The translations under genes were made by a program, and so were the position numbers. The notes under the pieces were generated by a model. That model was not told the DNA's origin and did not search any database. It saw nothing but the letters and a program-made list of their open reading frames with translations. From Stegostoma tigrinum (taxonomy: Eukaryota), in assembly GCF_030684315.1 (NCBI RefSeq), contig NC_081384.1, forward strand, positions 31,396,935 to 31,460,934: DNA of 64,000 bases, written 5' to 3'. Positions 3,076 to 51,660 of this stretch are shown in pieces (position 1 is the stretch's first letter; each line of letters starts with the position of its first letter).

Positions 3076-3337
3076 CGGAGTAACACTCAGTTGAGACTTT
3101 GAACTTTAGAGGTTGTCAGCCAATAAAGAAAGGGCCAGAAATAGTATTCTTTTCAGATTTCCCTCGTGAATTTATTTAAACAGTCAAGTATAAACCATCA
3201 GCGATATAGTATTTGCTGTCCATCAGTAACCGTGCAGTAAAGCGTCATTACAAAACAGTAAAGATACCATTAATTCTATATATACCAGGTTTCTTAAAAC
3301 AAATTGTTCCAGCCTCTACTAGACATGCCTTTGGAGG

Positions 3338-4322
3338 TTAACTTCTTCAGTCAAATTGTGTCATTATGACAAACAACTGTTGCTAATGGGCTCTGGTCTC
3401 AACGTGGATTGTTTCTCAGGAATAGTCATTAAAATTCTGAAATATGGAATCATTGAGGGGATAAGAGATATTAGAGAATGAACAGATTTTAAATGGAATG
3501 AAATGAACTGAATGCCAGTAATTACACTGTCAATGATCAATTGTCCCACCTTCTGTTTGAGAAACTTTCGCAGTTTCCTGAAGTATTTGTGAATGGTGGT
3601 GTTTCCGCTGAGTCTGGCCTCTGTTCCAGATCTCTTAACACATTCATCTACTTCCCTGAACTGTCGATCAAGGAGAAGCCAGACATTCTACACCTTGTCC
3701 GGGGCCCAAGTGACTGTAGATCTTCTTGATGTGACGCAAGGTTTGATGAAGTATCTGGATCCTGTCCTGGGCCTGAAAAAAAAACACACACAGGGATCTT
3801 AGAGAAGGAACTGTTTCCCATTTCATCTAATTCCAACTGCTAGAAGCAACTAGGGAGGACATGAGGAAGAATGGTGTCACATGGAGTGTGATGAGTGCCT
3901 GGAATTCTCTGCACTTCTTGGTGCTTGAGAAAGCCTCAACTCATTTAAAATGAACCTGGATCTGCACTTAGCTCTGTACTCTGTAAAACTGGAGTTGGAA
4001 ATTGAATTTGACTGTGTGCTGAGTATATTCACCTAACATAGACACGGTGCACTGAATGGTCTCTTTCTGTGCATTTTCTATTTCAGTCAAACCTGACTTC
4101 AAACAGCACATGACACTTTTCTGAATCCAGTGGATATCTGATATTGAAACTCTAAGTTGTTGATCTTAAATGCTTTCCAGAAAACTTCTGTCAGAAGATT
4201 TAAAAATAAACTCCAGTCCAGTGTCCACTCACCTGTAAACCTTCTGGAAGCTTCACCAAGTTCAAGAGCTTGAATTTGAGCATGGACCTGTCTTTCAAAC
4301 ATTATCAGAGAAAATGAGAGCC
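3338..4322 (-). pseudogene. Type I interferon pseudogene (copy 1): exon 2 4233-4322, exon 3 3550-3772, exon 4 3338-3436; exon 1 probably inside the N gap
   Basis: Exon 2 translates GSHFL**CLKDRSMLKFKLLNLVKLPEGLQ. Exon 3 (AQDRIQILHQTLRHIKKIY...YFRKLRKFLKQK) is 223 bp rather than 240 (17-bp deletion) and also has a TAG. Exon 4 reads NFNDYS*ETIHVETRAH*QQL. AG/GT boundaries match the intact copies. Confidence 0.9.
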
Positions 4323-4447
4323 CTGCGAGAAGACATTCATTGATTTAGCAAGATCAGGAACAGAAATACTGGAGAATCGCTTACTATTAATGGTATAATG
4401 GAGCAAAACTAAAAACTATTCAGCAATGACCAGACCCAGTGAGATTC

Positions 4448-4584
4448 NNNNNNNNNNNNNNNNNNNNNNNNNNNNNNNNNNNNNNNNNNNNNNNNNNNNN
4501 NNNNNNNNNNNNNNNNNNNNNNNNNNNNNNNNNNNNNNNNNNNNNNNNNNNNNNNNNNNNNNNNNNNNNNNNNNNNNNNNNNNN
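4448..4584. other. Assembly gap (N run)
   Basis: Run of n characters. Confidence 1.
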
Positions 4585-4675
4585 CTGCCCAAGCTGCCAC
4601 TGTCTATTGGAGGAATAATGAGTGAGGTGTGGGCATACCATTCAAAAAATGAAATACAGTAGAATGTCTCAGTGG

Positions 4676-4827
4676 TGAATTTATTTAAATAGTCCAGGAC
4701 AAACTATCAGTGATATAGTATTTGCTCTCCATCAGTAACCATGCAGTAAAGTATCATTACAAAACAGTCAATATACCATAAATTCTGTATATAACAGGTT
4801 ATTTAAAACAAATTGTTCCAGCCTCTA
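4676..4827 (-). pseudogene. Isolated paralogous fragment of the copy-1 3' UTR region
   Basis: Aligns by eye to 3166-3318 (gtgaatttatttaaa...gatatagtatttgct...aaacaaattgttccagcctcta), which lies just downstream of copy-1 exon 4. Confidence 0.75.
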
Positions 4828-5339: not shown

Positions 5340-7900
5340 GCCTCAGGTAAGTATCCATTAGCATATACAATAATGAGAGATCACCTTATTGTAAAATATG
5401 GATTCTTGGGGGGGGATTTGACTAAGTAGATGCTGAGATGTACCCCTTTATGGGGGAATCTGTAACATATTTGACAGTTTCAGAATCAGGTACCCCCTAC
5501 TTAAGCTGAAGACGAGGGGGCTTTTCTAATGAGGGTGCCGGGAAAGGCAAGAATGTAAAGTTACAATCATAGTCAGGGCAGTCATAATCTTATTAAACAG
5601 TGGAGCAGGTTTAATGAGACTAATAGCCTATTCATTTTCCTATTTCCAATGTTGAGACCACTGAAACTACTGTTAGAGTCCCCAGCAGAATATCTCTTCC
5701 CCAGTCATGGATGCCATCCCTCTCCCTGGAAACTGTCTGAGTCTGAACCAGACTTTTTGCAAACCTGCTTTCATGTTTGACCCAGAGGTGAGTATGAATA
5801 AGACTGCCTACTTCCACTTCGATAATGTCCCCTGACTCTAACCTACATCAGTAGCTACTGCTGAAATACTCATCTCCATTTATACTCCCATTTGCCTCAG
5901 TTTGCAATGTTTGCTTCCAGCCTCCCTCAAGATCAATTCCCTTCCATAAGGCCATAAATTGGAGGAGCTGAAGTTGGCCATTCAGTCCATCCAGCCTGCT
6001 TCACCATGACTGAGCTGTTAACCATCAACTCTACTTTCCTGCCCTTTCCTCACAACCCTTGATTACTGGTTAAGAAGCTGTCTATCTCAATGTTAAGTAT
6101 ACTTAACAACCCAGACTTGTTAGACCTCTGCAATTAAAAAAATCACAAATTCACTATCTCTGACAATAGAAATTTCTCATCTCTGGCTGACTGCACACTC
6201 TGAAACTGTGCCTGTGACACGAGTGTTTCCCTCGAAAGAAAACAACATCTCTGCATCAACCCTGTGAAGTTCCTAAGAATCTAGCATTGTTCAATAAGGT
6301 GGCCTCTCATTCTTCTAAGCTCCAAAGAGTCCAGGCCCAATTAAGGGGTGATAGATTTAAGACAGATGTCAGAGGCAGGTTCTTTACTCAGAGTGGTAAG
6401 GGCGCGGAACGCCCTGCTTGCCAATGTAATTAACTCAGCCACGTTAGGGGCATTTAAACAGTCCTTGGACAAACATATGGATAATGATGGGATAGAGTAG
6501 GGGGAGGGGCTTAGATTAGTTCACAGGTCAGCGAAACATTGAAGGCTGAAGGGCCTGTTCTGCGCTGTATTGTTCTCTGTTCTATGTTCTAATCTACTCA
6601 ACCATTCCTCATAAGACAAACCGTCCCTATACAGGCTCAACTTAGTGAAGGTTCTCTGCATGGCCTTCAATGACAATATATCTTTCCTGAGATAAGGGGA
6701 CCAAAACTGGTCACAATATTCCAGGTGTGGTCTAACTAATGTCTTGTTTGTTTTTAATAAGACTCAGCTATTTTTATACTCTGAAGCCTTTGAATTAAGG
6801 CCATCATTCCATTTGCTTTACCTGATACTTGCTAAACTTGAATTTTGTGATTCACGCACAAGGACTCCTAAATCTCTGTTCTTTTCACTTTCTACCATGC
6901 TTCTCCATTCTTCCTGCTCTATTCTTCCTGTCAATGTGCATAACATCAGATGTTCCAACATTACATCCTGCATGTTAAGTCTTTGCCTATTCACTTATCT
7001 TGTCTAAATCCTTCTGCATACTCATGACATATTTCTCAACATTTACCATCGACCTATTTTTGTGGCATCTGTAAACTTGACTCTGTATAAATTTGACTTT
7101 CCTGATTCAAATCATTAATAATGGTCTGAGAATCAATTGTACCCTTCAAATTTGATTTCCCCTTTACTTTAATTTTGATCCTTTTCATTCAGTTTAATCC
7201 TCAACCCTCAGACATTGACAGCTTATTCTGTTCACCAATAGATTCTCCATTTTTAACATGTACCACCTGGAAGACACGCTGACCTATATGCTCCTCTGTA
7301 TGTGATTTGCTCAGTTCCTCAGCAGCTGATTTCCTAGTTCCATTCAGCACCAAACATCACAGTTTCACAGCATGGTGACTGTACAAAAGATGCCATTCAG
7401 CCTCTCTCCTGTATGTTGGGTCTGTGAAGATGAGTTGGTTTGTCTAATTTAACACACTTGGTCTTGTACATTCATCTTTTCAAGAAAATATTCCACCTTC
7501 TCCTTTGATTGCTCTCCACCACAATCTCAGGCAGCCTGTGCCAGCTCCCAACCACTCATTTCATGAAGAGGCCATTCCTCATGTCACCATTGGATATTTC
7601 TGCCATTACTTGAAATCTCTGTCTGCTTCTGCCCATCCATTGCATCAATGGGGAACATTTATCCCTGTCTACTCTGTCCAGGCACCTCATCACTTTAAAT
7701 ACCTCAGTAAATTATCCACTCAACATGCTTTTCTGCAAGGAAGCCACTCCCCAATTCTCCAATGTAAATGCAGTAATGAAGTTGCTCATCCCTGCACCTA
7801 TCCTTCTGAATCCATCAGAACTGCTTTAGTTTGTTGCTAAAGTGTAGTGCCCAACAACCACATGATATTCCACTGAGGCCAAACCTATACTGTTATTTAA
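5340..7900. mobile_element. Nested degraded CR1-like LINE 3' fragments in both orientations; a younger plus-strand 3' end at ~6342-6590
   Basis: CR1-like 3' text (agatttaagacagatgtcagaggcaggttctttactcagagtggt...ttctatgttcta tail). Boundaries approximate. Confidence 0.55.
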
Positions 7901-8387
7901 GTTTAATGTAATTTCTTTACAGATAATATTCTCTAGCCGTATGGATAAAGTCTCGGGAGGTAGATAAATTTTGAAGTTCTATCACGTTGTCCTCTCTGTC
8001 AATTTGTCATGGATTTAAGCGGATATATGCAAAAGGCCCTCTGCCACTGCGCCCCTTGACAATTTAATCATTTTGTTCGGCGGTGCTTGCTATCAAAAAT
8101 AAATCGCTTCTCATTTCAACTAAGTAATTTCAGTCCGCCACATGCTGAGCCGTTCTACACAAAAGTTTTCTCATTTGAAGTTCTACATTTTGTCCAAAAT
8201 TCCTTGTCGCTATCAAACGTACCAACAAAGTACCATGATCACCCTGACTGTCATCCCTCACAAATAATTCCAGCAACTTTGTTAACAGTGACCTTAATCC
8301 AACATATCCACCTCCCACATAGCAGTTCCTAAAGTATAAGGGACAGAGTAAGATCCCAATCCTGTTCTGGGGGCAGCTGACACTCAC

Positions 8388-8513
8388 CATTTCGTTCAGT
8401 TTGCTCAGAGTCTCTGTGTTGAGAACTTGCTGCAGCCTCTCACAGCCCAGACTCAGGCTCCCGGACACCAAACCCAGCACCATCCAAAATCTCCAAACCG
8501 TCGCCAGACACAT
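8388..8513 (-). CDS. Orphan type I IFN exon 1B (signal peptide plus start of the mature protein), with a 6-bp in-frame deletion
   Basis: MCLATVWRFWMVLGLVSGSLSLGCERLQQVLNTETLSKLNEM followed by a GTGAGT donor; nearly identical to the 1B exons at 19135, 27497, 35581 and 51529. Confidence 0.85.
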
Positions 8514-8659
8514 GTTGTACCGAGACAGAAGGTAGCACCGAGGTGGAAGATGAGAAAGCGGTCAGTGTGCAGTCGGAGCGGATTGTGACCCGGGAGCGAC
8601 CGCCTGTGCTGCCGAGTGCTGTGAGTGTGAGCCTGGGCTCTGCTGGTTGCTCTCACCGG

Positions 8660-9443
8660 CACTGCCATGCTGGCGGCTCGAAAGGGGCACATTACATTCC
8701 AAAAGTGAAAACTGCTCCCAGGATTTTTAGAGCGCCTGGAGCAGGAGTGTGTGCTGTTGCTTTCTGAGGTAAGGAATCGAAATGCTGGAGATTCCCGAAG
8801 CTGCGGCTGGAAAATCCCGGGTCGCTAATCGCAACCTGCGCTCGATTTGCAGCTGAATGTTGAGTGTGTTCAGATGATCGGGCACTGAGCTGGTGCAGGG
8901 GGAGGCTCTGTACTTGGCTGGTGGGATTGGGGACTGGGTCGGGATATGTACTTGGGGCTGGATGTCCTAATCCGGATTATAGAGACCCCGTACGCGGAAA
9001 TCCCCGGTGTCACGGCGCTAGTCGCGTTCCCATTTTCCAGGTTGGAGATGACAGGGAGCCCGGGTCACAGGCCTGGCTCACCGGCTGCTGGCGACTGTCT
9101 CCGCTCACATTCACCTGGCCCAGAATCCGCTCCCTCACTGGAGCAAGGTTCCCACTTCCAGCTCGGATTCCGGAAATATTTTCAGGATCCCTATGGAATC
9201 ACCAGGATCCTAGTCCGAAAGTGATCCCTCTCCCTTTCCTTTCATCGCTTCTTTCTGCTCTCTCTCTTTCCCGGGAAAGTGTCTTTGTCGGTTTCTCTCT
9301 GCAAATGTACCTCGTGTCTATTTTCTCAAAAGCGAAAGTGCCTCAGGGAAAGTGACGCGTTTTGTCATTTCCGAAAGGGAGAGGAGTTTGTAAACACAGC
9401 GGGTCAGACTGAGAGGGGGCAGGACAAGGAACATGTGGGAAAG
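8660..9443 (-). promoter_or_regulatory. Exon-1B promoter cassette (CpG-rich, with IRF and NF-kB-like motifs); copies at ~19400-20180, 27780-28560, 35870-36640, 41970-42750, 51820-52590, 57920-58700
   Basis: IRF-type AAAAGTGAAAA at ~8701; kB-like GGAGATTCCC, GGAAAATCCC and GGAAATCCCC; a distal cluster of GAAAGTG/AAAAGCGAAAGTG at ~9217-9355. Motif calls are by consensus resemblance only. Confidence 0.65.
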
Positions 9444-11794
9444 TGTGGAGCTGGATGAACACAGGCCAAGCAGCATCCTCGGAGGACAAAAACTGATGTT
9501 TCGGGCCTAGACCCTGCATCAGAGAGGGGGATGGGGAGAGGGTTCTGGAATAAATAGGGAGAGAGGGGGAAGCGGACCGAAGATGGATAGAGGAGAAGAT
9601 AGGTGGAGAGGAGACAGACAAGTTAAAGAGGCGGGGATGGAGCCAGTGGGGGTAACTATTTGTGGGGAGGTAGGGAGGGGATAGGTCAGTCCTGGGTGGA
9701 TAGAGAGGTCAAGGAGGCGGGATGAGGTTAGTAGGTACGAAATGGAGGTGCGGCTTGAGGTGGGAGGAGGGGATAGGTGAGAGGAAGGACAGGTTAGGGA
9801 GGCGGGGTCGAGCTGGGCTGGTTTAGGGATGCAGTGGGGGAGGGGGAGATTTTGAAGCTTGTGAAGTCCACATTGATACCATATGGCTGCAGGGTTCCCA
9901 AGCGGAATGTGAGTTGCTGTTCCTGCAACATACGGGTGGCATCATTGTGGCACTGCAGGAGGCCCAGGATACACATGTCATCTGAGGAATGGGAGAGGGA
10001 GTTTAAATGGTTCACAACTGGGAGGTACAGTTGTTTATTGCGAACCGAGCGGAGGTGTTCTGCAAAGCAGTCCCCAAGCCTCCCTTGATTTCCCCAATGT
10101 AGAGGAAGCCGCACCGGGTATAGTGGATACAGTATACCACATTGGCAGATGTGCAGGTGAACATCTGCTTGATGTGGAAAGTCATCTTGGGGCTTGGGAT
10201 GGGGGTGAGGGAGGAGGTGTGGGGGCAAGTGTAGCATTTCCTGCGGTTGCACGGGAAAGTGCTGGATCTGGTGGGGCTGGAGGGCAGTGTGGAGCGGACA
10301 AGTGAGTCCCAGAGAGAGCGGTCTCTCCGGAAAGCAGACAAGGGTGGGGATGGAAAAATGTCTTTGGCGGTGGGGTCGGATTGTAGATAGTGCAAGTATT
10401 GGAGGATGATGTGTTGTATCAGGAGGTTGGTGGGGTGGTATGTGAGGACTCGGGGGATTATCTTTTGGCGGTTATTGCGGGGCGGGGTGTGAGGGATGAG
10501 TTGCGGGAAATGCGGGAGACGCGGTCAAGGGTGTTCTCGACCACTGTGAGGGGAAAGTTGCGGTCTCTGAAGAACTTGGACATCTGGGATGTGCGGGAGT
10601 GGAATGCCTCATCGTGGGAGCAGATGCAGCGGAGGCGGAGGAATTGGGAATACGGGATGGAATTTTTGCAGGAAGGTGGGTGGGAGGAGGTGTATTCTAG
10701 GTAGCTGTGGGAGTCAGTGGGCTTGAAATGGACATCAGTTTCTAGGTGGTTGCCTGAGATGGAGACAGAGGGGATCCAGGAAGGTGAGGGATGTGTTGGG
10801 GATGGTCCAGGTGAACTTGAGGTTGGGGTGGAAGGTGTTGGTGAAGTGGATGAATTGTTTGAGCTCTTCTTGGGAGCATGAGGTCGTGCCAATACTGTCA
10901 TCAATGTAACGGAGGAAGAGGTGGGATTTAGGGCCAAAGTAGGTGCGGAAGAGGGAGTATTCCTACAAAGAGGCAGGCATAGCTTGGGCCCATGCAGGTA
11001 CCCATGGCCACCCCCTATGTCTGTAGGAAGTGGGAGGAATCGAAAGAAAAGTTATTGAGGGTGATGACGAGTTCAGCTAGGCGGATGAGAGGGACTGGTC
11101 AGGTCTATGGGGCAGGAAGAAGTGGAGGGCCTTTAGGCCATCTGCATGCGGAATACAGGTGTATAGGGACTGGACATCCATGGTGAAAATGAGGTGTTGG
11201 GGACTAGGGTATTGGAAGTTCTGGAGGAGGTGGAGGACATGGGAGGTGTCACAGACGTTGGTAGGGATTTCCTGGACCAAGGAGGAGAAAACAGAGTCCA
11301 GATAGGTGGAGATTAGTTTGGTGGGGCAGGAGCAGGTGGAAACAATGGTTCGACCAGGGCAGGCAGGTTTGTGGATTTTGGGAAGGAGATGGAAGCGGGC
11401 AGTGTGAGGTTGGGGATCAGTGAGGTTGGAGGCTGTGGGTGGGGGGGTCATCTGAGGTGAAGAGGTTGTGAACGGTTTGGGAGATGATGGTCTGGTGCTC
11501 GGGGGTGGGGTCATGATCCCGAGGGTGGTAGGAGGAGGTGTCAGAGAGTTGGCATCTGGCCTCAGTGATGTAGACGTCAGTGTGCCATACTACAACTGTG
11601 CCTCCCTTGTCTGCGGGTTTTATGGTGATGTTGGGATTGGAGCGGAGGGCTGCCTGTTCTGTGGGGGAGAGGTTGGAGTGGGTGGGAACGGTGGAGAGGT
11701 TGAGGCGGTTGATATCTTGACGGCAGTTGGAGACGAAGCGGTCGAGGGAGGGTCGGTCTCGGATTCTCCAGCATCTGCAGTTCCCATTATCTCT
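9444..11794 (-). mobile_element. Penelope-like retroelement (RT + GIY-YIG endonuclease; Cys-rich linker suggests Neptune-type), 5'-truncated and frameshifted
   Basis: ORF pieces IKPADKGGTVVVW, LPKIHK, MDVQSLYTCIPH, KPTDSHSYL..SSHP..CK.SIPYSQFLRLR.ICS, CNRRKCYTC and VVYCIHYTRCGFLYIGE. 18-bp direct repeat aaggaacatgtgggaaag at 9426-9443 and 11795-11812. Confidence 0.9.
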
Positions 11795-13243
11795 AAGGAA
11801 CATGTGGGAAAGAGCTTGTGATATTCCAGAATATGTTGGTTCAGGGGCAAATGTCTCCAAAGCACTTTTCAGTTGGAACTACAATCCACAGTAACATTTG
11901 GAATGAATTGAGTCATTGATTTTTGTAATGAAATGTTGTTTACGGAAATTGGAACTCAAACTGTATTTTCCATTTAAAACAATTCCAGGCTGGAGTGATT
12001 TTTGATCAAGAAGCAAATCATAAGTTTTTTATAGTGCCTGAAATCAAATAATGAACTGCAGACACTCGAAATTTGAAGATAAAACAGGAGTATTTGGAGA
12101 AAATTAGCAGTCCTACAGCAAATGTGGTGAGAAAGCAGAATCAGCGTGACTCGGACCGTACTTCAGAACTAATGTCAAAACGTTCACTTGGAGATCGCTC
12201 CACCTGTGCTGCCATACCTGATGGGTTTCTCCAGAAATTTCTGTTTCTCTCAAGAGTGTGACCTGCAAATTCGAGTCAAGGCCACAACCCGATAAATCTG
12301 TAACAGAATAATGGTGATACTTGAGGTTTCAAGTGGCCTATCTCTGTGCATGTGTATGTGATGAAGTATTTTGTACAAAAACTGATTATCGCCATGCAAG
12401 CCAAGATGCTGTGAGTTATAATAGCACTCGTCACACTTTGACTTCCTTAATGCTGGGCGATGTCAATCTCAGGCATGGTCTACTTTCTCTATCGGTACTC
12501 AATGGCAGATACTCTCAGCATTCAGCATTCTCAGGTCACTTCAATTCACTTATCACATTTGCCCCTCCCTCCAACCAGTTTTTCTCCTTTCCAGCTGAGC
12601 ATCCGTAAGTGTAATCCACTTTTGCTGCTGAACCAGAGTACAAATTTCAGTGGAAGATGTGTAAAAGTTGAAAAATTAGACAATTGAAACAATGAAAATT
12701 GGATTTGTGTGTCTGAGTATTGAGGAAAAAAACAATTGTGCAAGGTGGAGATTGTTGATGAGGAGGAGCAAGAGTAACAGGAATGGAGACGGAAATATCC
12801 ACAGCATTTATAATCAATGTGAAAAAGTTTAATAACAAGAGATACAATGTTAATTCAATAAAAGTGTAATATTATTAAAACCAATTTATTTATATAAATG
12901 AGCTCCTATTCAGAATTTTAAAATTCCCAGATGGAAAAATAGTGTACTCCACACATATAATAAATAGCAATAAATTAACATCTTTATGTTACTTAACATA
13001 CTGTATAAAATTGTAGCATTTCAATAAGTTTAGACTTCATGTCAATAAATAGGAATAATTTGGAATAACTGAGATGGGTTGCAAGGGTGTAAAAGAGGTG
13101 ACAACGTCAGTGTGTCTCTGACATCACCGAAGTCCAAGTGCAACTCTGACATTTCAAAACAGACTCCACACACAGTGAAACCTCAAAATCGCAACAGGAG
13201 AAAATATCCCCACAATAAATAACAGTAAATTGAAGTGCATAAT

Positions 13244-14064
13244 GAGTTTTAAGAAGATTTGTAGCTCAGGTTGAGGTTCTGGATGTGAGTTTGCTCACTG
13301 AGCTGGAAGGTTAGTTTTCAGACGTTTCATCACCATTCTAGGTAACATCATCAGTGAGCCTCCAATGAAGCGCTGGTGTTATGTCCCACTTTCCATTTAT
13401 CTGGTTAGGTTTCCTTGGGTTGGTGGTGTCATTTCCTGCGTTGGTGATGTCATTTCCTGTTCTTTTTCTCAGGGGATGGTAGATTGGCTCCAAATCAATG
13501 TGTTTGTTGATGGAGTTCCGGTTGGAATGCCATGCTTCTAGGAATTCTCGTGCATGTCTCTGTTTGGCTTGTCCTACGATTGATGTGTTGTCCCAATCAA
13601 AGTGGTGTCCTTCCTTATCTGTATGTAAGGATACGAGTGATAGTGGGTCATGTCGTTTTGTGGCTAGTTGATGTTCAAATGAACATCAACTAGCCAGAAA
13701 ACGACATGACCCACTATCACTCGTATCCTTACATACAGATAAGGAAGGACACCACTTTGATTGGGACAACACATCCATCCTAGGACAAGCCAAACAGAGA
13801 CATGCACGAGAATTCCTAGAAGCATGGCATTCCAACCGGAACTCCATCAACAAACACATTGATTTGGAGCCAATCTACCATCCCCTGAGAAAAAGAACAG
13901 GAAATGACATCATCAACGCAGGAAATGACACCACCAACCCAAAGAAACCTAACCAGATAAATAGAAAGCGGGACATAAGACCAGCGCTTCATTGGAGGCT
14001 CACTGATGATGTTACCTAGAATGGTGATGAAACGTCTGAAAACTAACCTTCCAGCTCAGTGAAT
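13244..14064. mobile_element. Inverted pair of Penelope-like 3' ends (second family) in the 3' UTR of IFN copy 2
   Basis: ~13294-13677 is the near reverse complement of ~13680-14062. The right arm encodes a GIY-YIG C-terminus (EHQLARKRHDPLSLVSLHTDKEGHHFDWDN..AREFLEAWH). Flanked by tgcataat at 13236-13243 and 14065-14072. Confidence 0.85.
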
Positions 14065-14195: not shown

Positions 14196-17100
14196 TCAGT
14201 TTTTTCTGCTTACTTGTGCCATAATGGAATGCAGCTGTTGTAAACGGGCTCTGGTCTCAGCATGGATTATTTCCCAGGAACAGTCACTGAATTTCTGAAA
14301 AGGTAAAATATTGAAGGAAATGCATTTGAGAATGAAACGAGTTAAATGTTGGCAAACGAATTGCTTGTTAGAAAGCACACAGTTTGTTATCAATTGTCAC
14401 ACCTTGTCTTTGAGGAACTTTTCCAGTTTCCTGAAATAAAGTTGAACGGCAGAATTTCTCTTCGTTTTATAGTCAGCCCCTGATTTTCTCAGACAGTCTT
14501 GCAAACTCTCTGAGCTGTTGATCCAGGAGAAGAAGAAAGTTTTCCACCTTGTCCCAGGCCCTTGTCACTGAATCCAGGTTCACGCTGTAGACCTTGCTGA
14601 TGTGATGCAAAGTTTGATGGATCAGCTCAATTCTATCCTGAACCTGAGCAAAACACACAAGATTTGTAAAGAGAACTTTTATTCCCATTCATTTCTGGCT
14701 TTCATTAGATTAAGTAAAATTTGAATCATTCAATTATTTAAATCAATGTTTTGAAAACATGCAGAGGACATGAACAGTTGAAGTTTTTTGCACCTCAGAA
14801 TTGTCGAAGGTTTAATTGAAAGAGAAAAGATTCTGTGCGATTAATATTCAGTTTTTCCGTTAGCAAGGATCCAGGCTCAATCAAATCAGAGAGCGAAATA
14901 AGTAAATAAGGATTCAAAGCGGCATAACACACAAAGGAAGCTGAACATGTTTTTTTTAGGTAATAGTATAAGGAAAACAGGTTGACAAGGAAGCATATTA
15001 TATAATTTCCTCTGAGATATTGAGGGCATGACTGAACTATGAAGCTGTGAGTGAATTTTGCATTATTTAGAAAATAAAGGTATCAAATGTGCCAGGAAAG
15101 TAGAGGTTGATGAGAAATTGAGGAGAGAAAAAACAGATAAGGAGTTCTTAATCAGACATTGACAGCAAATGGAATGTGACAGTCATCTGCTCTGTGTTGA
15201 ATTGATCTTAGGTTGCAGTTGCAAAGAAGAAAATGAAGTAGTGCAAAATAATGCTCAAATGAGGCAAGAAGATCATGGTATTGTTGTAAACCTCAGTCCC
15301 TGTGCAATGAACAATGTTGTGATCAGAGATAATTGGAACTGCAGATGCTGGAGAATCCAAGCTAACAAAGTGTGGAGCTGGATGAACACAGCAGGCCAAG
15401 CAGCATCTCAGGAGCATAAAAGCTGACGTTTCGGGCCTAGACCCTTCATCAGAGAGGGGGGTGGGGAAACGTCAGCTTTTGTGCTCCGAAGAATGCTGCT
15501 TGACCTGCTGTGTTCATCCACCTTCACACTTTCTAATCAATGAAGAATGTTGCTTAATTGGCTTTTAACAAGGAACGATCAGAGGCAATGAAAAAGATAC
15601 AGTGAGAGTAGGGTACAGAAGCCCAGATGCTTTGATTCAGACAGGAGGAACTGGACTGTATGTGGAGTGAGAACATTGCATTGTCAACAGGCAAATTGAC
15701 TCTCGGTGACAGGCCTTCTGAGTGATCTTTGCGGCAACTCAGTAATTCAGTACCTCGTGGTAAGTAAGTATTGTAAATGCACTTCAGAGAAATAGGGCAA
15801 AATACGATGAAGTAGAACGGACAGTATGCGACTGCGCTTAAACCAGACAAAGAATACTCGAATGGAATAAAGACATAGTATGGAATGGTTGCAATGAATG
15901 GGCTGTACCTGACTCATGTATCATAGCTAAGTGATTTGCTGAGTTCTGAAACGGGAAAGCACATCAATCTGAGATAACAAGGTGTAGAGCTGGATGAACA
16001 CAGCAGGCCAAGCAGCATCAGAGGAGCAGGACGGCTGACGTTTCGGGGCGAGACCCTTTTTCAGAAAAGCACGTCAATCTGTTCATGTTCCAGACAGCAA
16101 TGATCTCATGCCATCAGTGACGAATGAATAAAATCCCATGAAGTGGTCAAGTAGAATAAAATGTGTCTCAGTGAATTGCCACAAAAGTGCATAAATGCCA
16201 CCTCTACAAATAAGCATCATATTTCTTGCTAGGCTAGCAGAAAGTGTTGATGCACCTGAAGGGTTGGTGTGTGAATATTAATCAGCCAGTTGTGTGTATT
16301 TGCATGTACTGATCTCGTGGGAAAAGCAGCTCCAAGAAAAATTTTCAAAAGAGATATGTATGTAGAGTTAAAAGGGAAGCTGTGATGTGGCCGTGGGGAA
16401 TGTCCTCGTGACTAATTTGTGAACTGATTCAGTTTTCAGCGTATTCAGGAGACAGTTTGGTAACGTGTGTGCAACGAGATGCTACATTTGTAGCAATTAA
16501 CTGTCCCCCGTGGTTCACACCTCACTCAAATCACTGAAGATAGGGAGGGACATTTTCATACGGAGGGAAGCTTCCAGGAATGAACCCAACAGGATTGGAG
16601 GGATTAGCGAAACAGAAGAAGTGAGATTGTAAGGGAAAATTAGAATGAGATAATTTGAGAAGATTTCGGGAAGCCTGAGCAATGTGAGCTTGAGAAACTA
16701 TAAGAAAAGAGATGAGGTCAGTGAGCGGGATTGAGCTTGAGCGAAACAAGATAGTTCGAGCGGCGTGATAGATAGGGAAGGTTTTTGGATGAGGTGTGGA
16801 GGTGGTCTGAGGGATGGGATCGGGAGAGGGTTTGACATCATCTCAGGGGGAGGGTTTGTCATAAGGAGATTTAAAGAACAGGAAGGGAATTAGTGAACGA
16901 GGAAAAGAGTGAAACAAAACTATGCCGATATGTTTTTACGATATTTAAAATGGGTGGTAATCATTGATGTTCAATGTCGAATGCTGTGATCGTGCCGTTA
17001 ATCTCACACGTACATTCTCTATAGTCTCCAGCTGAATAAAACCAATCGAGTTTTCACTCACCTCCAGTCCGCTGGAAAGTTTCGCAAGGTTCAACGACTT

Positions 17101-17454
17101 CGTTTTCAACGAGAACCTCTGGCTTAGGCAGTGTAGGGGAAAGGGTCCGCCCTGAGACGAGAAAACAGTCCCAGTTACTTTCAGTCCCACAAAATGAGTT
17201 ACTGGAGTATCACAGAGAGCGAATTGCACAAAAAGAAATTCTATTTCTCCCTGATCTGGCAATTAGCAAAGTAAAATCCCGGTGAGATTCAGATTCTGTT
17301 GTGGGGTCAGCTGAAACTCACCATTTCATTCAGTTTGCTCAGAGTCTCTGCGTTGAGAACTTGTTGTAACTTGCAGCCTCTCACAGCCCAGGCTCAGGCT
17401 CCCGGACACTAAGACCAGCATCACCCAGAGTCTCCAAATTCTCGCCAGAGCCAT
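14196..17454 (-). pseudogene. Type I interferon copy 2, frameshifted: exon 1A 17322-17454, exon 2 17062-17151, exon 3 14403-14643, exon 4 14196-14294
   Basis: Exon 1A is 133 bp (+1 T at ~17371) and exon 3 is 241 bp (+1 A at ~14503). Exon 2 (GGPFPLHCLSQRFSLKTKSLNLAKLSSGLE) and exon 4 (KFSDCSWEIIHAETRARLQQLHSIMAQVSRKN*) are open. The single-base insertions could be sequencing errors. Confidence 0.8.
15325..15535. mobile_element. Short Penelope-terminal fragments (inverted pair) in copy-2 intron 2; further dispersed copies at ~15968-16065, 20605-20790, 26418-26520, 30470-30677 and their duplicates
   Basis: Shared text gaactgcagatgctggagaatc..gagctggatgaacacagcaggccaagcagcatc..gctgacgtttcgggcctagacccttcatcag. 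Confidence 0.75.
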
Positions 17455-19134
17455 GCTGCACCGAGATAGCGGGGAAACTCTGACCGGAAGAATCTGATCA
17501 CGACTGGGTCTGGTTCCAACTCCTTTATTATTGATCTAAACTGGCTGCTTGTCAAGTCAAAGCGATTTCCTTAAGTGTCGAGTCCTGAGCGAGTGTCTGT
17601 GTGTGTGATCGAGCGAGGTTGGCCTGAGCTCGGAGCTGCCACTGCCTGAGCACCGGTTTATATCAGTGGGGGGACTGGCGAAGTGTCGGCATGACATTCG
17701 AAAAGTGAAACCTGTTTGTGGAAGTTTTGAACGTGGTATAAGAGAGCAAGAAAACCTCTGGGTTCTCGCTGTGTGAGGGAAGGAATCTGAATTCTGGAGA
17801 TTTCTGAAGCAGGGAGTGGAAGATCCCTGATAAATAAAACACAGCCAGAGTTCGAGGCAAACTCATAGGTCCGAGAATTTCTCCCAATATCACTGATATC
17901 ATTTTTTGGGATCTAGGATATTTTTCCAAGTTGAACGGATGCACTGATACTGTTGGAAAAATTGGTTTGATAGTTGCATTATATTTATTTCATTAAAACC
18001 ATAAACAACACGAAATGTACCTGTGAACGGAATAAAACGTTGCTTGACCTTCTCGCCTCTCTGTAACTTTTAACAAAATGAACCACAGCTTCTTCGTTCA
18101 ACTTATCATTGCTGCATGGACCGAGCGGCCTGGGACTGCATCCCCTTGTTCTTATTCTGATCGACCTCAATTTAGCCTCAGAAAACTGCCCAACCTGCTC
18201 AAACACTGTCACTGTGAGGGGTCCCCAATGACCTGTCCTTGACCCCATTTCACTTCCCTACATAATGCCCACTCAGGGTCAATTTACAAAATGCAGCCTC
18301 AGATTCCATGCTAACAGCTCTACTTTTCACTTTGTATATTCATCTCCCATAAGCAACATTTCTGGTAATTACACATCGAGACGTTTGCAGCAAATCTTTT
18401 TATTTTCTCAAACAGAAAATCGTTCCTTTGCCACTCAATATGATCAGGGCCCATTTTCCGCTCTCAAGCGCTTCCTTCGGATTCGGACCCACACTATTTG
18501 ACACCTGAGATTTCTCTGAGATCCCGAGGTGAGATTTTGATGCATAGCTCAACCATTGACACCCTCCCACTTGGAAGGAAAGTTATCTCATATTTAAGAA
18601 TTGCGTCCAGTTCCAGATACTTCCAAACTACCATTCACCCTCCCTTCTCCCCTGTCATGGGCAAGGTCAGGGAGTGAGGTCACGGCTCTGATGCTGCTCC
18701 TCCATTTGGGCGTACTCCCGAACACCTTTAGCCTAAACCTGACATGGACCAGAACACGGCTACCTCGTCACCCGATTCTAGTTTCGGAGCCCCAGTGGAC
18801 ACCACTGTCCTGAGTGTCGTGAAACCCCTCACTCATTTCAGCCAAGACCCTCTCGTCCCCTTCTAAACTCCGGGGCACACAAACCGAGCCTTGACCAACA
18901 GTTGGGCGCGAATCAATTTCAGGAATTATGCTGGTAAAACCTCTCTGTCATGGTTCCATTTCATTTTCTACCCTTCCTTACAGAAGATCCACACTGTTCG
19001 AGAAGCGATCTCAACGGATCCCTGCACAGTTGAAGCAAACACACTATTTGGGTATTCTGTTATGTTTTCATTTGTAATTCAACAATTGAAGAATCAAGTA
19101 CCAGAGCAGTCAATATAGATCAGCTGACACTCAC

Positions 19135-19266
19135 CATTTCGTGCAGTTTGCTCAGAGTCTCTGTGTTGAGAACTTGCTGTAACTGCAGCCTCTCACAGCC
19201 CAGACTCAGGCTCCCGGACACCAACGCCAGCACCATCCAAAATCTCCAAACCGTCGCCAGACACAT
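19135..19266 (-). CDS. Distal exon 1B of IFN copy 2
   Basis: 132 bp, MCLATVWRFWMVLALVSGSLSLGCERLQLQQVLNTETLSKLHEM, GTGAGT donor. Confidence 0.85.
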
Positions 19267-20308
19267 GTTGTACCGAGACAGAAGGTAGCACCGAGGCGGA
19301 AGATGAGAAAGCGGTCAGTGTGCAGTCGGAGCGGATTGTGACCCGGGAGCGACCGCCTGTGCTGCCGAGTGCTGTGAGTGTGAGCCTGGGCTCTGCTGGT
19401 TGCTCCTGGCAGCTCGAAAGGGGCACATTACATTCCAAAAGTGAAAACTGCTCCCAGGATTTTTGGAGCGCCTGGAGCAGGAGTGTGTGCTCTTTCTTTC
19501 TGAGGTAAGGAATCGAAAAGCTGGAGATTCCCGAAACTGCGGCTGGAAAATCCCGCGTCGATAATCGCAACCAGCGCTCGATTTGCAGCTGAATGTTGAG
19601 TGTGTTCAGATGATCGGGCACTGAGCTGGTGCAGGGGGAGGCTCTGTACTTGGTGGTGGGATTGGGGACTGGGTCGGGATATGTACTTGGGGCTGGATGT
19701 CCTAATCCGGATTATAGAGACCCCGTATGCGGAAATCCCCGGTGTCACGGCGCTAGTCGCGTTCCCATTTTCCAGGTTGGAGATGACAGGGAGCCCGGGT
19801 CACAGGCCTGGCTCACCGGCTGCTGGCGACTGTCTCCGCTCACATTCACCTGGCCCAGAATCCGCTCCCTCACTGGAGCAAGGTTCCCACTTCCAGCTCG
19901 GATTCGGGAGGCATTTTCAGGATCCGTATGAAATCACCAGGATCTGATCCGACTCTGAAAGTGATCCCTCTCCCTTTCCTTTCATCGCTTCTTTCTGCTC
20001 TCTCTCTCTCCCGGGAAAGTGTCTTTGTCGGTTTCTCTCTGCAAATGGACCGCGTGTCTATTTTCTCAAAAGCGAAAGTGCCGCAGGGAAAGTGACGCGT
20101 TTTGTCATTTCCGAAAGGGAGTGGAGTTTGTCAACACAGCGGGTCAGACTGAGAGGGGGCAGGACAAGGAACATGTGGGAAACTGTGAGATCCCGGGAAA
20201 GGTCCATTAAGAGTGAATTGTCTCCAAATCACTTTTACTTGGAAAGACCACCCACTCTGACAGGCCGGGTCTTTTATTTTAAATCCATTGAAATATTCAT
20301 TTTTATGA

Positions 20309-20483
20309 AACCCAAGGAAACCTAACCAGATAAATAGAAAGCGGGACATAACACCAGCGCTTCGTTGGAGGCTCACTGATGATGTTACCTAGAATGGTGA
20401 CGAAACGTCTGAAAACGAACCTTCCAGCTCAGCGAGCAAACTCACATCCAGAACCTCAACCTGAGCCTCAAATCTTCTCAAAA
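20309..20483 (+). mobile_element. Second-family Penelope 3' terminus with a hammerhead-like motif
   Basis: Matches the reverse complement of 13253-13421; contains ctgatgatgttacctagaatggtgacgaaacgtc. Confidence 0.8.
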
Positions 20484-22963
20484 TTCATTTTTATAACTAA
20501 ACGTTCCTATTTCCAGCTGGAACAGAAACTGACATTACCCGAAATAGCATTTGACAGCTTATTTTAAATTGTTGTGACAAGTATTCAAGCAAGACTGGGG
20601 TAGACAGCGGGAACTGCCGATGTTGGAAAATCTGAGATCACAAGGTGTAAAGCTGGATGAACCGATACTCCTGAAGAAGTGTCCAGATCCGGAACGTCGG
20701 CTTTCCTGCCCCTCTGATGCTGCGGTGTTCATGCAGCTCCACACCTTGTTATCTCAGATTCTCCAGCATCTGCAGTTCCCACTATCTCTGCATTTAAATA
20801 ATGCCATTTATGACCAAAGCACTCATCTAAGCACTCTGCAAAAAATAGGATTTTTTTTTAAAAATGTATTCACTTTAAAGGCAAGAAATGTGTTCGGCAT
20901 ATTGTGTTTAGCAATCTCAGAACATGTGGAATGTAGTAAGCACCTGGTTTTATGATGTTGAATGTGGGTCAGTTATTGGAATGCCAGACGGATCATTGGT
21001 ATGGCAGTGAATCGTCACCTTCCGTCAATAACTTTGTAGAAGGGGCACATCATGTTGCTCATATCACACAGGAAGACGAAAATAACAATTTGTGAGGCGG
21101 ACATAATGATCATCTAAAGAGTAATCAATCGCTGAAGGCAGGAGGAAGAATTATGCAGTTGGAGTGTAATGAGCGAAAATGTGACGGTGTCCAGATCGCT
21201 GAAATGTATCACCACATCGACAAAAATGACTTATCCCCCCCACCTGTCAATCGGTGTAAAAAAATACTACCTTATGAGATGCTCGGCAGACTTCAACACA
21301 AGCAAGATCTTCAAAAAAGACAAGGAGTGCAGATACGTGGGAACCTTGCCAGTAAGAAGTTCCGACCAAGCCAGTCTCTATCCTGTAGTGGAAAGAAACC
21401 ACCGTCCACTCACTATCACTGGGTCAAATCCTGGAGATTCCTCCCTGACAGCGCTTTGGGTCACCCTACAGCAGATGGACTGTCCCCGTGCAAGATTACA
21501 ACACTCGACCAAGACAAACGCAACCCGGGACAAGCAAGAAATGCTGGCGCAGTCAGCGACACCGCCTTCCCAGGACTGAATAACAAAAAGCAGAAAACCA
21601 TCGAGCATGTGGAACGTCATTGGAAGGAGGGAGGTGAGGAAAGGTACGGAATTATTGCTGCCACTACGCAGGATATTCGTGCAGGCTATGGGTACTAATT
21701 ATATAATGCTTGGCTCACTGCTTAAACAATCAACACTTGAGAGTAAATTCACCCGGTTAATGCTTGGAGTGATCATTTTGGCTGTTAAGAAAAGATTTCC
21801 CGTCTGGGCCTACGTTAATCGCAGTTGCGCAGATTGAAGTTGGTGAAGTTATTGAAACAATTAAGGATCTGGGGAGACTTCAGTGAATAAATGTTATGAA
21901 GGTGTTTCGGCCTTTGTGGATGCGACAAATAAGCTCATTGGTTGAATATGAGCAATCTCCACTTCAAATAGAGGTAAGGACAATTTCCTGGTCAAGGAGT
22001 TACTTATCACGAGGTACCTCCACCCCTGACAACAGCCATGACATTGAATATATTCAAGTTTATATTGAGAGATTTTTGATCTACAAGCAAACCATAACTT
22101 TATATTTAGGGACTGCAAACATGGAAAGAACAGCAGATGCAGGTAATCTGAAACATAAAACAGGAATTGGAGAAAATCAGTCGTCTGACAGCAACTGTAG
22201 CAAGAAAACAGAACTAACGTTATTATTCCAGTGACCTTCAGGAGCTAACGAGAAAAATAAATCACTGTGCTTTCTCTCCACAGGTGCTGCCTTACCTGAT
22301 GGGTTTCTGCAGAAATTTCTGTTTCTGTCAAAGGTTGTTAGGGTATAAGCTGAAATTTTGAGTGAAGGCCACAATCTGATCAGCTGCAACAGAACATTCG
22401 AAACACTTGACGTGTTAAGTGTTCACCGTTTTACATGGTTATGCGATCAAATATTTCTTTAAAAAATGTATTTATCGCAGCTGGAAGCTATTACAATTTG
22501 TAGCTGCACTCCTCACTCTGATTTTTGTTTTAAAAACGAAAGGTATCATTCTTCAACCAGTTTCTGCTTTCCCTATTTATACACGGTGACTTGGTATTCT
22601 TACACCATTATTCAAACTTCACATCAACTCTCCAATTCCATTTATCTCTCCGTGCAACCGGCTTTCCCCTTTCCTGCTCAGCCTCGCAAAATTTGTCCTT
22701 TTTTTGCTGCTGAACCGGAATACAAAATTCAACGAAAGAATCTTAACACAGAAATAAATCAGACCAGTGGAATTGAAAATGGATTTAAAGGTCTCAGGAG
22801 TGAGGGCAAATCGTGAGTTCAAAATGAACATTGGAGATGACGAGCACGAAGAGTAACAGATTGAAATCAGAACTATCAACAGCATTTATGCGCAGTGACA
22901 AAGGGTAAATGAGAGAAATCAATAATAGACATCAAATTAGTAAACGTGTAAAGTAAAAACGAA

Positions 22964-23438: not shown

Positions 23439-25503
23439 TCAGTTTCTTCTGTTGACTTGTGCCATTATGAAATGCAGCTGTTGTAAACGGATTCTGGTCT
23501 CAGCACGGATTACTTCCCAGGAACAGTCACTGAATTTCTGAAAAGTAAGATATTCAAGTAAGTGCATTTGAAAATGAATAAATTAAATGTTGCCATGATT
23601 TACACAGTTAGTTATCAATTCTCACACCTTGTTTTTGAGAAACTTTTTCAGGTTCCTGAAGTAATGTTGAATGGCAGCATTTCTCTTTAGTTTGTGGTCA
23701 GATCCTGATTTCCTCAGGCAGACTTGCAACTCTCTGAGCTGTTGATCGAGGAGAAGACGAAAATTTTCAACCTGGTCCCAGGCCCAAGTGACTGAACCCA
23801 GGTTCATGCTGTAGATCTTGTTGATGTGGTGCAGCGTTTGATGGATAATCGCAGTCCTTTCCTGAGTCTGAACAAAACACACAAGGTTAGAAGAGACGAC
23901 TTCATTCCCGTTCATTTTGGGTTTATATTCAATTCAATAAACAAACAGCAAATAATAGTTAATTGTTCAAATCAAATATTATCACATCAATGGAAAATGA
24001 GCAATGCGAGTCTTTAAATCAATGATTAAGATGCAGGTATAAAGGGTTTATTCAGCAGAGGAAAAGGACATGACAAGTTAGAGGTTTCAGCAGCCTCGAA
24101 TTGTGCTGATAAAAGTGGAATGGAAAAGGTTCCAAACGATGAATATCCAGTTCCTCAGACAACAAGAAACAGGCTCAATCAAGTCGGAGAACTAACAAGC
24201 TAAATAGGGGTAATCGGAATATGTGCCGATTAATTAGTGTGTAACACAAAAAGGAAGCTAAACATGTTTTTGAGAAGTATTAATAAAAGAAAAGCTGGCT
24301 GGTAAGGGAGCAAAATATATGATCCCTTCTCTGTTAGCAAGGGTATCACTGAAGACTGAAACATTAATTTGAATTTACTTGCTTCAGAGAACAAAAGTGT
24401 GAAATGTGAGTAAAGTGGCAAGTTGATGATAAACCCAGTAGGAAATAAATCGACAAGGAGACAGTCATCAAGAATTAACAGCGAATAGAATGTGAATGCT
24501 ACTTGCCCTTTTTTGAATATATTCTGTGTTTGCTTTTGCAAAGTAGAAATTCGTGTAAAATCATGCTCAAAGGAGCGAGAAAATAATAAACATATCCTGT
24601 GTGGTGAAGAATGTTGATGGTTCGGAACTTGGATGTAACGTGGAAAGTGCAGCGATAGCGAGAAAGATCCTGTGAAGCCTGAGAACAGGGGCCCTTTCGC
24701 TTTCAGCCCGAACTTTCGAGAGCAGGATGGGGATTTGTTCAGTGAGAGGGTTGAGTTTTAAGCAGGCAAAGTGATTCTCAGTGACAGCCCTGTTCAACGT
24801 CAGTTGCGGCAGCCGAATGGTAAACGACTAATTCACAAAACAGTGGAGAGTGCTGCAGTGATTTTTGTCAATTCACTTCAGCTGAAATGGGACTAAAATG
24901 GACAGATGTTGACAACGCTAAAACCAAACGAAGGTACCTTGAGAGCAGTACTGACAAAGCATGAACTTGTTCACAGTGTGCCAGTCTCATGCTTTTACTG
25001 AGACCAGTTGCGGCGATTTACACAACGGATGGAAATCATTGCGGTTCAACCTCCAACGATCTGATCGTGTCGCTAATCTCACACATACATTCTCTAAAGT
25101 CTCAGTCTGAATAAAATGACTCACCTCAAATCCGTCGGAAAGTTTCACCAGATCCAAGGGCTTAGTTTTCAGTGACAGCCTCTGCCTTATGCAATGTCGG
25201 GGGAAATGACCTCCCTGAGAGGAGAAAACAGTCCCGGTTACATTCAGTCCCACAAACTGAGATGCTGGAGAAACACCGAACGGTAATTGCACAAAATGAA
25301 TATCTATTTCTCCCTCAACCGACATTCAACAGCGAGCAGACCCACTGGGACTCCGATCAGTTGACACTCACCATTTCATACAGTTTGCTCAAGGTCTCTG
25401 TGTTGAGAACTTGCTGTAACTGCAGACTCTCACAGCCCAGGCTCAGGCTCCCTGACCCCAAAAGCAGCACCACCCAGAGTCGCCAAATTCTCGCCAGAGC
25501 CAT
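23439..25503 (-). CDS. Type I interferon copy 3, intact, 186 aa: exon 1A 25372-25503, exon 2 25125-25214, exon 3 23628-23867, exon 4 23439-23537
   Basis: MALARIWRLWVVLLLGSGSLSLG|CESLQLQQVLNTETLSKLYEM / GGHFPRHCIRQRLSLKTKPLDLVKLSDGFE / TQERTAIIHQTL..YFRNLKKFLKNK / KFSDCSWEVIRAETRIRLQQLHFIMAQVNRRN*. GT-AG phase-0 introns, type I IFN YF..L..FL and C[AS]WE motifs, 4 mature Cys. Confidence 0.93.
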
Positions 25504-25594
25504 GCTGCACCGAGATAGCGGCGAAACTCTGACCGGAAGTAACTGATCACGACTGGATCTGCTTCCAACTCCCAAAACAGTCCCTTTTTCACTG

Positions 25595-25721
25595 ATAATG
25601 GGAACTGCAGATGCTGGAGAATCCAAGACAATAAAATGTGAGGCTGGATGAACACAGCAGGCCCAGCAGCGTCTCAGGAGCACAAAAGCTGACGTTTCGG
25701 ACCTAGACCCTTCATCAGAGC
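25595..25721 (-). mobile_element. Short Penelope-terminal fragment in the exon-1A 5' UTR (also copy 6, ~49620-49747)
   Basis: Matches the PLE terminus; absent at the equivalent site of copy 4 (~33815) and copy 2. Confidence 0.85.
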
Positions 25722-25829
25722 AGAAGCGGTTTCCTTCAGTGTCGAGTCCTGTGCGACTGTCTGAGTATATCTGCATGTCTGACAGAGCGAAGTCGGCCTG
25801 AGCTGGGTGCTGTGACCGCCTGAGCGGCC

Positions 25830-25975
25830 GGTGTATATAGGAGGCACTGGCGAGGTGTGGCCATGACATTCGAAAAGTGAAACCAGCTTCCGGGAGTTTT
25901 CAATGATCAGAGGAGAGCAAGTGTGTGTGCTCCCTGTCTGACGGAAGGAATCTGAAAGCTGAAGATTCCTGAAGG
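25830..25975 (-). promoter_or_regulatory. Exon-1A promoter: TATA box, ATF/Jun-like half site, IRF site, kB-like site (also ~17655-17800, 33930-34070, 49858-50000)
   Basis: TATATA at ~25834-25839; TGACATTCGAAAAGTGAAA at 25864-25882; GGGAGTTTTC at 25892-25901. Confidence 0.7.
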
Positions 25976-27496: not shown

Positions 27497-27628
27497 CATT
27501 TTGTGCAGTTTGCTCAGAGTCTCTGTGTTGAGAACTTGCTGTAACTGCAGCCTCTCACAGCCCCGACTCAGGCTCCCGGACACCAACCCCAGCACCATCC
27601 AAAATCTCCAAACCGTCGCCAGACACAT
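27497..27628 (-). CDS. Distal exon 1B of IFN copy 3
   Basis: 132 bp, MCLATVWRFWMVLGLVSGSLSRGCERLQLQQVLNTETLSKLHKM, GTGAGT donor. Confidence 0.85.
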
Positions 27629-38700: not shown

Positions 38701-39515
38701 GTGCTCCTACGATGCTGCTTGTCCTACTGTGTTCATCCAGTTCCACACTTTGTTATCACAAACTTTGTCCATTTTTGCTGCTGAACCGGAATACAAAATT
38801 CAAAGAAACAATCGTATCACAGAAAAAAATCAGAGCAGTGGAATTGAAAAAGGGTTGATACGTCTCAGGTGTAAGTGCAAATCTTGAACGAACATTGGAG
38901 ATGACGAGCACGAAGAGTAACAGACTGAAGACAGAAGTATCAGTAGCATTTATACTCAGTGTCAAAAGGTTAAATGAGAGAAGTCAAAAATAGACATCAA
39001 ACTGGTAAATGTGTAATGTTAAACCAAATTTATTTATATCAATGAGTTCGTTTTCAGTATAAAAATTTCCAGCTTAAAAAAAATTTACTTCCCAACGTAC
39101 AAATAAATAACAATAAATTAACATCTTTAAGTTAATTGACATATTACATAAATTTCAATAAATTAAGACGTCTCGTCAATAAATATGAATAAATTAGAGT
39201 AACTGAAATGGGTTTCAAGATTGGCAAATAGGAGTTCACAAGTGACAAGGTCAATGTGGTTCAGAAATCACTGAACTGGAAGTCTGATGTTCCAAAACAG
39301 ACTTCACACTCAGTGAAACTTCAACATTGCATCGGGGGAAAACATCGCAACAATACATGTCAGTGAATTAAAATAAATAGTTCTGGCAACACTCCCGTTG
39401 TTGCTCTTGATGCAAGTGAGAAAAAAAATTCTTGCAAACATATATAAACAGTTTCAATGAAAAAGTCTTTGAAATAAATATTCATTGTTCTGGTCCGCAG
39501 TGAATATGTTTTTTT

Positions 39516-51528: not shown

Positions 51529-51660
51529 CATTTCGTGCAGTTTGCTCAGAGTCTCTGTGTTGAGAACTTGCTGTAACTGCAGCCTCTCACAGCCCAGACT
51601 CAGGCTCCCGGACACCAAACCCAGCACCATCCAAAATCTCCAAACCGTCGCCAGACACAT
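51529..51660 (-). CDS. Distal exon 1B of IFN copy 6
   Basis: 132 bp, MCLATVWRFWMVLGLVSGSLSLGCERLQLQQVLNTETLSKLHEM, GTGAGT donor. Confidence 0.85.

Follow-up and report, generated by a model that had tools for sequence, protein, structure and literature searches.

Self-comparison of the window, i.e., the whole 64-kb stretch of DNA analyzed here, revealed a tandem array on the minus strand in which units of approx. 8 kb each carry one four-exon type I interferon gene. The units were numbered from U1 (body at 3338-4322) to U8, which is truncated at the end of the window; U1, U2 and U3 represent old lineages and U3 to U8 recent duplicates. Of eight Stegostoma tigrinum proteins examined, seven were matched letter for letter by peptides encoded by exons in the window, and the nearest named proteins were shark type I interferons (from Stegostoma, Rhincodon, Chiloscyllium, Hemiscyllium and Heterodontus). 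The Pfam family Interferon (PF00143) matched exon 3 of U3 and U4 above the cut-off (E = 1.2e-11 and 2.2e-11, respectively); the four exons have GT/AG ends, the GT-AG introns are of phase 0 and the spliced frame is open. The array also contains a two-unit, 16-kb duplication (33822-48050 and 49748-64000) with 99% identity. U6 and U8 are marked by Penelope-like terminal repeats, with tandem 466-bp and inverted copies (44233-45846 and 60183-61796), and a second retroelement family shows a palindromic inverted layout at 13241-14062, with a fragment of 94-95% identity at 20309-20489. Single-base insertions in U2 at 14503 (exon 3) and approx. 17370 (exon 1A) are either real or possibly assembly errors.

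Two first exons, paralogous to each other, are present in the units; each begins with an ATG and a hydrophobic leader and ends at a GT donor. Exon 1A lies 160-170 bp above exon 2, and exon 1B approx. 2 kb further up in U2 to U4 and U6; the A and B sequences are 79-86% alike over exon 1 and approx. 70% alike over a short proximal stretch. Exon 1B and approx. 0.93 kb upstream of it form a cassette of approx. 1.07 kb. The initial annotation had named the three copies in U1 to U3, all of which were recovered, but the window holds seven, the additional ones being at 35563, 41671, 51503 and 57620, and the genes read on the minus strand (Table 1). The copy in U1 has a 6-bp in-frame deletion in exon 1B relative to the others. 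U5 and U7 are hybrids: promoter B and the 5' half of exon 1B are followed by the 3' half of exon 1A with the A-type intron, and intact gene bodies lie downstream; on the evidence of the junction, this fusion is the product of a crossover within the exon-1 homology.

Table 1. Positions in the window of the interferon units, their B cassettes and the remnants and insertion in U1
Feature	Position	Strand	Remarks
Dead body of U1	3338-4447	-	A-type intron 1 remnant 4359-4447; exon 2 4233-4322; exon 3 3550-3772; exon 4 3338-3436
Run of 137 N at the expected site of U1 exon 1A	4448-4584		approx. 345 bp expected from U2; probable content only
U1 promoter A remnant	4584-4654	-	leave-one-out profile E 3.4e-7; blastn 73.5% over 68 bp
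U1 A-B spacer remnant, homologous to U2-U4 spacers	5656-5796		leave-one-out profile E 5.6e-8
First approx. 18 bp of intron, low-coordinate edge of homogenized tract (U1)	8370-8387	-	
Exon 1B of U1	8388-8513	-	42 codons: predicted signal peptide and start of mature interferon; GT donor below 8388
5' leader and putative promoter B of U1	8514-9443	-	GC 55%
Left copy of 18-bp target-site duplication	9426-9443	+	
Decayed, probably Penelope-like retroelement at upstream edge of tract	9444-11794	-	2351 bp; GIY-YIG-like region
Right target-site copy (11795-11812) and continuation of upstream flank	11795-11896	+	87% identical to U3 28544-28644
U2 body and exon 1A (about 17322-17454, +1 frameshift)	14196-17453	-	exon 3 also +1 frameshifted
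U2 B cassette	19118-20182	-	exon 1B 19135-19266; 17-bp deletion in leader
U3 intact body and exon 1A (25372-25503)	23439-25503	-	exon 4 23439-23537; exon 3 23628-23867; exon 2 25125-25214
U3 B cassette	27480-28560	-	exon 1B 27497-27628
U4 B cassette	35563-36643	-	exon 1B 35581-35712; U4 exon 1A frameshifted
U5 B cassette fused to A-type intron	41685-42747	-	crossover inside exon 1, between 41706 and 41754
U6 B cassette	51503-52592	-	exon 1B 51529-51660; intact exon 1A at 49398-49529
U7 B cassette	57634-58697	-	B/A fusion as in U5

All seven copies of exon 1B keep the ATG, the frame and the GT donor. Exon 1A is frameshifted in two of the four visible copies (U2 and U4) by single-base indels that may be assembly errors, and frameshift or fusion has left U2, U4, U5 and U7 with 1B as their sole intact first exon. 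Three predicted Stegostoma proteins join the 1B peptide to exons 2-4 and two start with the 1A peptide, one pair sharing the same body; these models are predictions from the same genome and carry no independent support. A further Stegostoma model (P0004), from outside the window, has the exon 2 peptide of U2 behind a first exon with an A-like start followed by B-like sequence, which suggests B-to-A conversion. In one Hemiscyllium model, exon 1 is preceded by a B-type upstream region translated out of frame, which suggests that the layout with 1A and 1B is present in this shark as well. In a sequencing run guessed to be RNA from a related species (species C), exon 2 is matched exactly by one contig, whose leading 64 nt are assigned by depth arithmetic to the terminal part of exon 1, either 1A or 1B; moreover, A-type and B-type contigs of species C both end 33 nt above the donor. 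Together these contigs give a weak hint that both 5' ends may feed spliced mRNA in species C; none of the 15 joints listed out of 33 was an exon junction, all 15 being repeat-derived. By eye and by homology, exon 1B encodes an ATG and a hydrophobic leader like 1A, and thus differs from the teleost-type intracellular isoform; as both first exons have a signal-peptide-like start, both would yield a secreted protein.

Alternatively, exon 1B could be what is left of an upstream gene since deleted, without function and passively homogenized, with the region acting only as an enhancer or being irrelevant. The RNA-like run X18 of species C (25405-28646) also covers promoter A, the spacer and the sequence upstream of 1B, as might result from read-through or antisense transcription, and in U1 a copy of the 3' end of the unit lies between B and promoter A. 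We nevertheless regard a remnant as unlikely, as all seven 1B copies are intact compared to the two frameshifted among four visible 1A copies, U5 and U7 have only B upstream of intact bodies, and a search of the U2-U4 spacers found no remnant of exons 2-4. This reading concerns the function of 1B and is compatible with gene conversion of the cassette.

From its position and motifs, 8514-9443 in U1 would represent a promoter. It contains kB-like sites at 8787, 8809 and 8996 and IRF-like sites at 8702 and 9329 and has no TATA match, and promoter A of U2 has a TATA box. Enrichment of kB sites is of marginal significance (P = 0.05-0.08), and the strict form of the IRF motif is a post hoc choice. 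The TATA-like word TTTAAA of U3 to U7 reads TCGAAA in U1 and U2 (8679-8680 and 19400-19425), and the 17-bp deletion of U2 lies just below it; the B promoters of U1 and U2 are possibly weakened. CpG enrichment over the flank is clear in U1 only (0.65 versus 0.31-0.39) and not in U2 or U3, so that an explanation by a CpG island is weak for these two units. A plus-strand GT donor near 8770 with an AG acceptor near 9040 was also considered as an intron and rejected, since a species C contig continues through it unspliced.

The near-identity of the cassettes of U1, U2 and U3 that the initial annotation had described was borne out, with 29/1037, 31/1053 and 30/1046 differences in the three pairwise comparisons (approx. 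97% identity), as was the divergence of the neighboring exons: identities for exons 2, 3 and 4 were 54, 68 and 73% for U1-U2, 60, 71 and 73% for U1-U3, and 73, 83 and 91% for U2-U3. Between U2 and U3 the excess identity is sharply bounded on both sides, with 233/757 differences in the left flank compared to 32/1063 in the tract (P = 2e-64; Fisher's exact test) and 25/122 in the other flank; in 60-bp windows, identity leaps from 63% to 95% at 19118/27480. The low-coordinate edge is located 15-20 bp inside the intron, where a drop in similarity past the splice donor had already been noticed. Promoter A and exon 1A of U2 and U3 are not homogenized (71% and 78% identity, respectively). When the 200 bp that lie below 1B in U1 were aligned directly, identity was 60-67%, i.e., at the baseline for unrelated sequence (61 +/- 4%). 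Contigs from runs X5, X6 and X12 lose fit or carry an insertion at 28119-28126 in the U3 cassette, which hints at a variant or half copy elsewhere. Synonymous sites of exon 1B are homogenized too, with 0/30 differing between U2 and U3 and 1/29 in each of U1-U3 and U1-U2; pS over exons 2-4 was 0.35 and 0.49, and 7/31 synonymous sites differ between U2 and U3 in exon 1A.

Such a pattern could arise if purifying selection alone preserved the cassette in every unit, as in an ultraconserved regulatory element. We compared 4 of the 24 listed sequencing runs with U3, species C being represented by contigs that are not firmly assignable to units. Two comparisons of species C with U3 showed 50/467 and 102/817 differences in the spacer and 43/452 and 49/416 in the distal part of the cassette, i.e., the same rate of approx. 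10-12% (P = 0.59 and 0.78). The proximal part (500-730 bp), on the other hand, showed 25/486 and 43/731 differences, approx. half the spacer rate (P = 0.002 and 7e-6). The proximal part is thus constrained and the distal part unconstrained, although both are 95-98% identical among the paralogues in the window. Even with a worst-case correction, the distal part differs at no fewer than 31/452 sites from species C compared to 11-15/approx. 432 among paralogues (P = 0.03). As cross-species identity in the proximal half (94-95%) is close to paralogue identity (96.5-98%), selection may account for that half, and the exon 1 peptide is strongly conserved as far as Heterodontus. Selection alone fails, however, because the distal cassette of species C diverges like neutral flank, which largely refutes it there; in addition, synonymous sites are homogenized, species-specific letters are common to the paralogues, the dead copy in U1 is kept as well as the others, and the Hemiscyllium model of the cassette region is only approx. 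72% identical over 68 residues to the frame in the window. We therefore consider it very unlikely as the sole explanation.

Species-specific letters were evident among the eight distal sites listed, a tally that rests on the 40 of 319 cross-species differences that the program had picked out. At four of these sites all seven copies in the window are fixed against all three species C contigs, and at the other four U1 and U3 to U7 share one letter, and U2 and species C another. Each paralogue contains 44-53% of the 31-mers of U1, and the share of sampled words was at most 13% in species C runs and 59-64% in own-species runs of the best sample. Coverage was 29/30 bins for species C, 6/30 for the same-species run X6 and 9/30 for the organism B run X5. 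As X5 showed no differences in 186 and 151 bp and yet a word share of 0.15, poor cover can lower the share, and shares were thus used only for species C. Summed depth in species C seemed higher over the cassette; summed depth does not equal copy number. The initial annotation had set two outcomes against conversion, i.e., cassette identity equal to that of the flank and orthologous cassettes more alike than paralogues; we found cassette identity far above that of the flank, and species C copies 88-95% identical compared to approx. 97% among paralogues in the window.

Among the cassettes in the window, 112 of 378 pairs of informative sites are incompatible. A test for clustering of compatible sites gave P = 0.007, or P = 0.07 once adjacent sites were thinned, and in two patches (8756/8759 and 9382/9392) there are alleles that occur in U1 and U4 only, even though U3 and U4 are a recent pair. 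The discordance between trees of the cassette and of the gene body that had been predicted was not observed, as both have the same backbone topology, with U3 to U7 together; the signal lies instead in these incompatible pairs and in branch lengths, the total length of the cassette tree (0.078) being eightfold shorter than that of the body tree (0.61).

The body of U1 has six premature stops and a frameshift, with a net loss of 17 bp, which confirms that the exons below the copy at 8388 are dead. That copy had been called an orphan; it is not, as U1 retains an A-type intron, promoter A and spacer remnants, which were searched for with leave-one-out profiles built from U2-U4 only. At 4664-4827, adjoining the promoter A remnant on its upstream side and located between 1B and exon 2, lies an 89%-identical copy of the U1 3' flank (3166-3318) with a minus-strand AATAAA-like signal. 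At 9443 the weakening of similarity noticed earlier does coincide with an edge, but this edge is an insertion (9444-11794), beyond which similarity to U3 resumes. On moderate evidence the insertion appears to be Penelope-like: Atlas matches at 0.96-0.97 fell in clusters in which 11-21% of the members carry GIY-YIG, one end carries what we presume to be a hammerhead-like core, and neither Pfam nor Rfam gave a relevant match. The 18-bp target duplication found belongs to this retroelement. Upstream of the insertion, U1 differs from U3 at 12 of 83 bp, between the levels of the tract and of the old flank, as though the insertion had halted homogenization here. The tract of U2 ends at the same base as the insertion site of U1, which would fit a role of U1 as conversion donor.

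Repeated transplantation, i.e., a mobile module recently inserted in each unit, had been offered alongside conversion. The sharp edges and the new context of the cassettes in U5 and U7 are as such a module would leave them. We consider transplantation highly improbable, and reject it because homologous flanks persist on both sides, U2 and U3 being 69% identical over 757 bp and 80% over 122 bp. Moreover, U1 retains its homologous spacer, promoter A and upstream remnants, the module itself holds a diverged copy of exon 1A and proximal promoter A (70-86%), the junction in U5 and U7 lies inside the exon-1 homology as a crossover predicts, and the orthologous site in Hemiscyllium appears to be occupied. 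Collapse of copies by assembly or polishing can be practically dismissed. The tandem units are nearly identical, and the window does contain an N gap and several frameshifts due to single bases. Nevertheless, every copy is distinguished by substitutions and indels of its own, the letters of U1 at 27940-27941 recur in a contig obtained from a different sample of this species, and mis-mapping is unable to make 1 kb identical where the flanks agree at 65-70%. Overall, the B module is very probably a real tract of non-allelic gene conversion, and conversion in place best explains the sequences compared here.

To date the conversion of U1 relative to the death of its gene, we simulated neutral decay from an intact paralogue. 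Six stops were reached in no run at a divergence of 0.06 or less and in 1 of 400 runs at 0.12, compared to a cassette branch of 0.013 for U1; the simulation model is simple and the gap approx. tenfold. The gene body of U1 thus appears to have died long before the last homogenization of its cassette. If conversion went on after gene death, it was independent of U1 making protein.

We propose that an ancestral unit of shark type I interferon gained a duplicated first exon 1B with its own upstream region ahead of 1A. This gain would predate the divergence of U1, U2 and U3, which share homologous flanks; for U2 and U3 the homology on both sides implies that the module was in place before these lineages split. 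Non-allelic gene conversion would then have overwritten the approx. 1.07-kb B module repeatedly, in place and in patches, among units. Exon 1B and the proximal promoter were probably under moderate selection that held the copies similar enough for further conversion, with gene bodies, spacers and promoter A presumably diverging beyond the reach of conversion. The insertion in U1, recorded by its target-site duplication, shortened the tract, presumably after conversion had begun, and conversion of this unit would have persisted past the death of its gene, as the simulation suggests. Exon 1B most likely serves as an alternative first exon that is spliced to exon 2 to give a secreted interferon under an NF-kB/IRF-type promoter, and unequal crossover in the exon-1 homology left B as the sole start in U5 and U7. 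A bolder version, which we hold to be doubtful, is that the B module is a recombination-hot promoter spreading through biased conversion and unequal crossover and displacing the ancestral TATA promoter A, with the dead copy in U1 as a donor reservoir; divergent interferon proteins would then be under one continuously synchronized NF-kB/IRF switch.

Conversion of this kind is known. In the accessible parts of two reports on primate SIGLEC11 and SIGLEC16, neighboring immune paralogues underwent repeated partial conversion in separate lineages, a non-functional allele took part and a change of expression was attributed to conversion (PMC5701461, PMC6288428). The shark array resembles this pair in partial conversion with a non-functional partner. 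As far as those parts describe it, the SIGLEC tract covers the ligand-binding exon of a two-gene pair, whereas the shark tract covers the first exon and upstream sequence of at least seven copies; unlike in the SIGLEC pair, the exons for most of the mature protein diverge here and the sister exon 1A lies outside the tract. A driver is suggested by promoter-directed recombination, which the accessible text of one report describes where PRDM9 is lost or partial, listing an elephant shark orthologue without the SSXRD domain (PMC5519329). It would explain conversion centered on the GC-rich promoter B, but the CpG enrichment is clear only in U1. The shark array makes such recombination testable as a driver of concerted promoter evolution in sharks, and it represents a clean natural case in which regulatory and coding sequence of one gene family have separate histories, with internal controls in the non-converted sister promoter A, the dead, still-converting unit U1 and a tract edge frozen by an insertion. 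For phylogenies of shark interferons, concatenation of exon 1 with exons 2-4 should be avoided.

In the UGT1 and protocadherin clusters, first exons that arose by duplication have promoters of their own and are spliced to a common set of downstream exons; shark units differ from these in having only two first exons each and in the tandem repetition of the whole unit. For cartilaginous fish, IFN1 genes have been described as tandem, intron-containing and subject to birth-and-death evolution (PMC6640115), and the genes in the window agree in being tandem and intron-containing; duplicated first exons and promoter conversion are not mentioned in the accessible part of that report, whose supplements may list the genes of this array. 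The conversion mechanism is of a known kind (SIGLEC11/SIGLEC16), and for the interferon architecture we found no description in the literature searched, which included few subscription journals and no supplements. A further likeness is found in teleosts, where, according to the accessible portions of two reports, IFNa and IFNphi1 have two upstream regions and alternative 5' ends, the upstream form being intracellular and without a signal peptide (PMC5127012, PMC5332411). Both groups have type I interferons with two upstream regions, but, unlike in the teleosts as described there, 1A and 1B of the shark are paralogous, and both are coding and begin with what resembles a signal peptide. Beside the teleost genes, the shark genes would thus form another class of type I interferon with two promoters, in which both first exons are of the secreted type.
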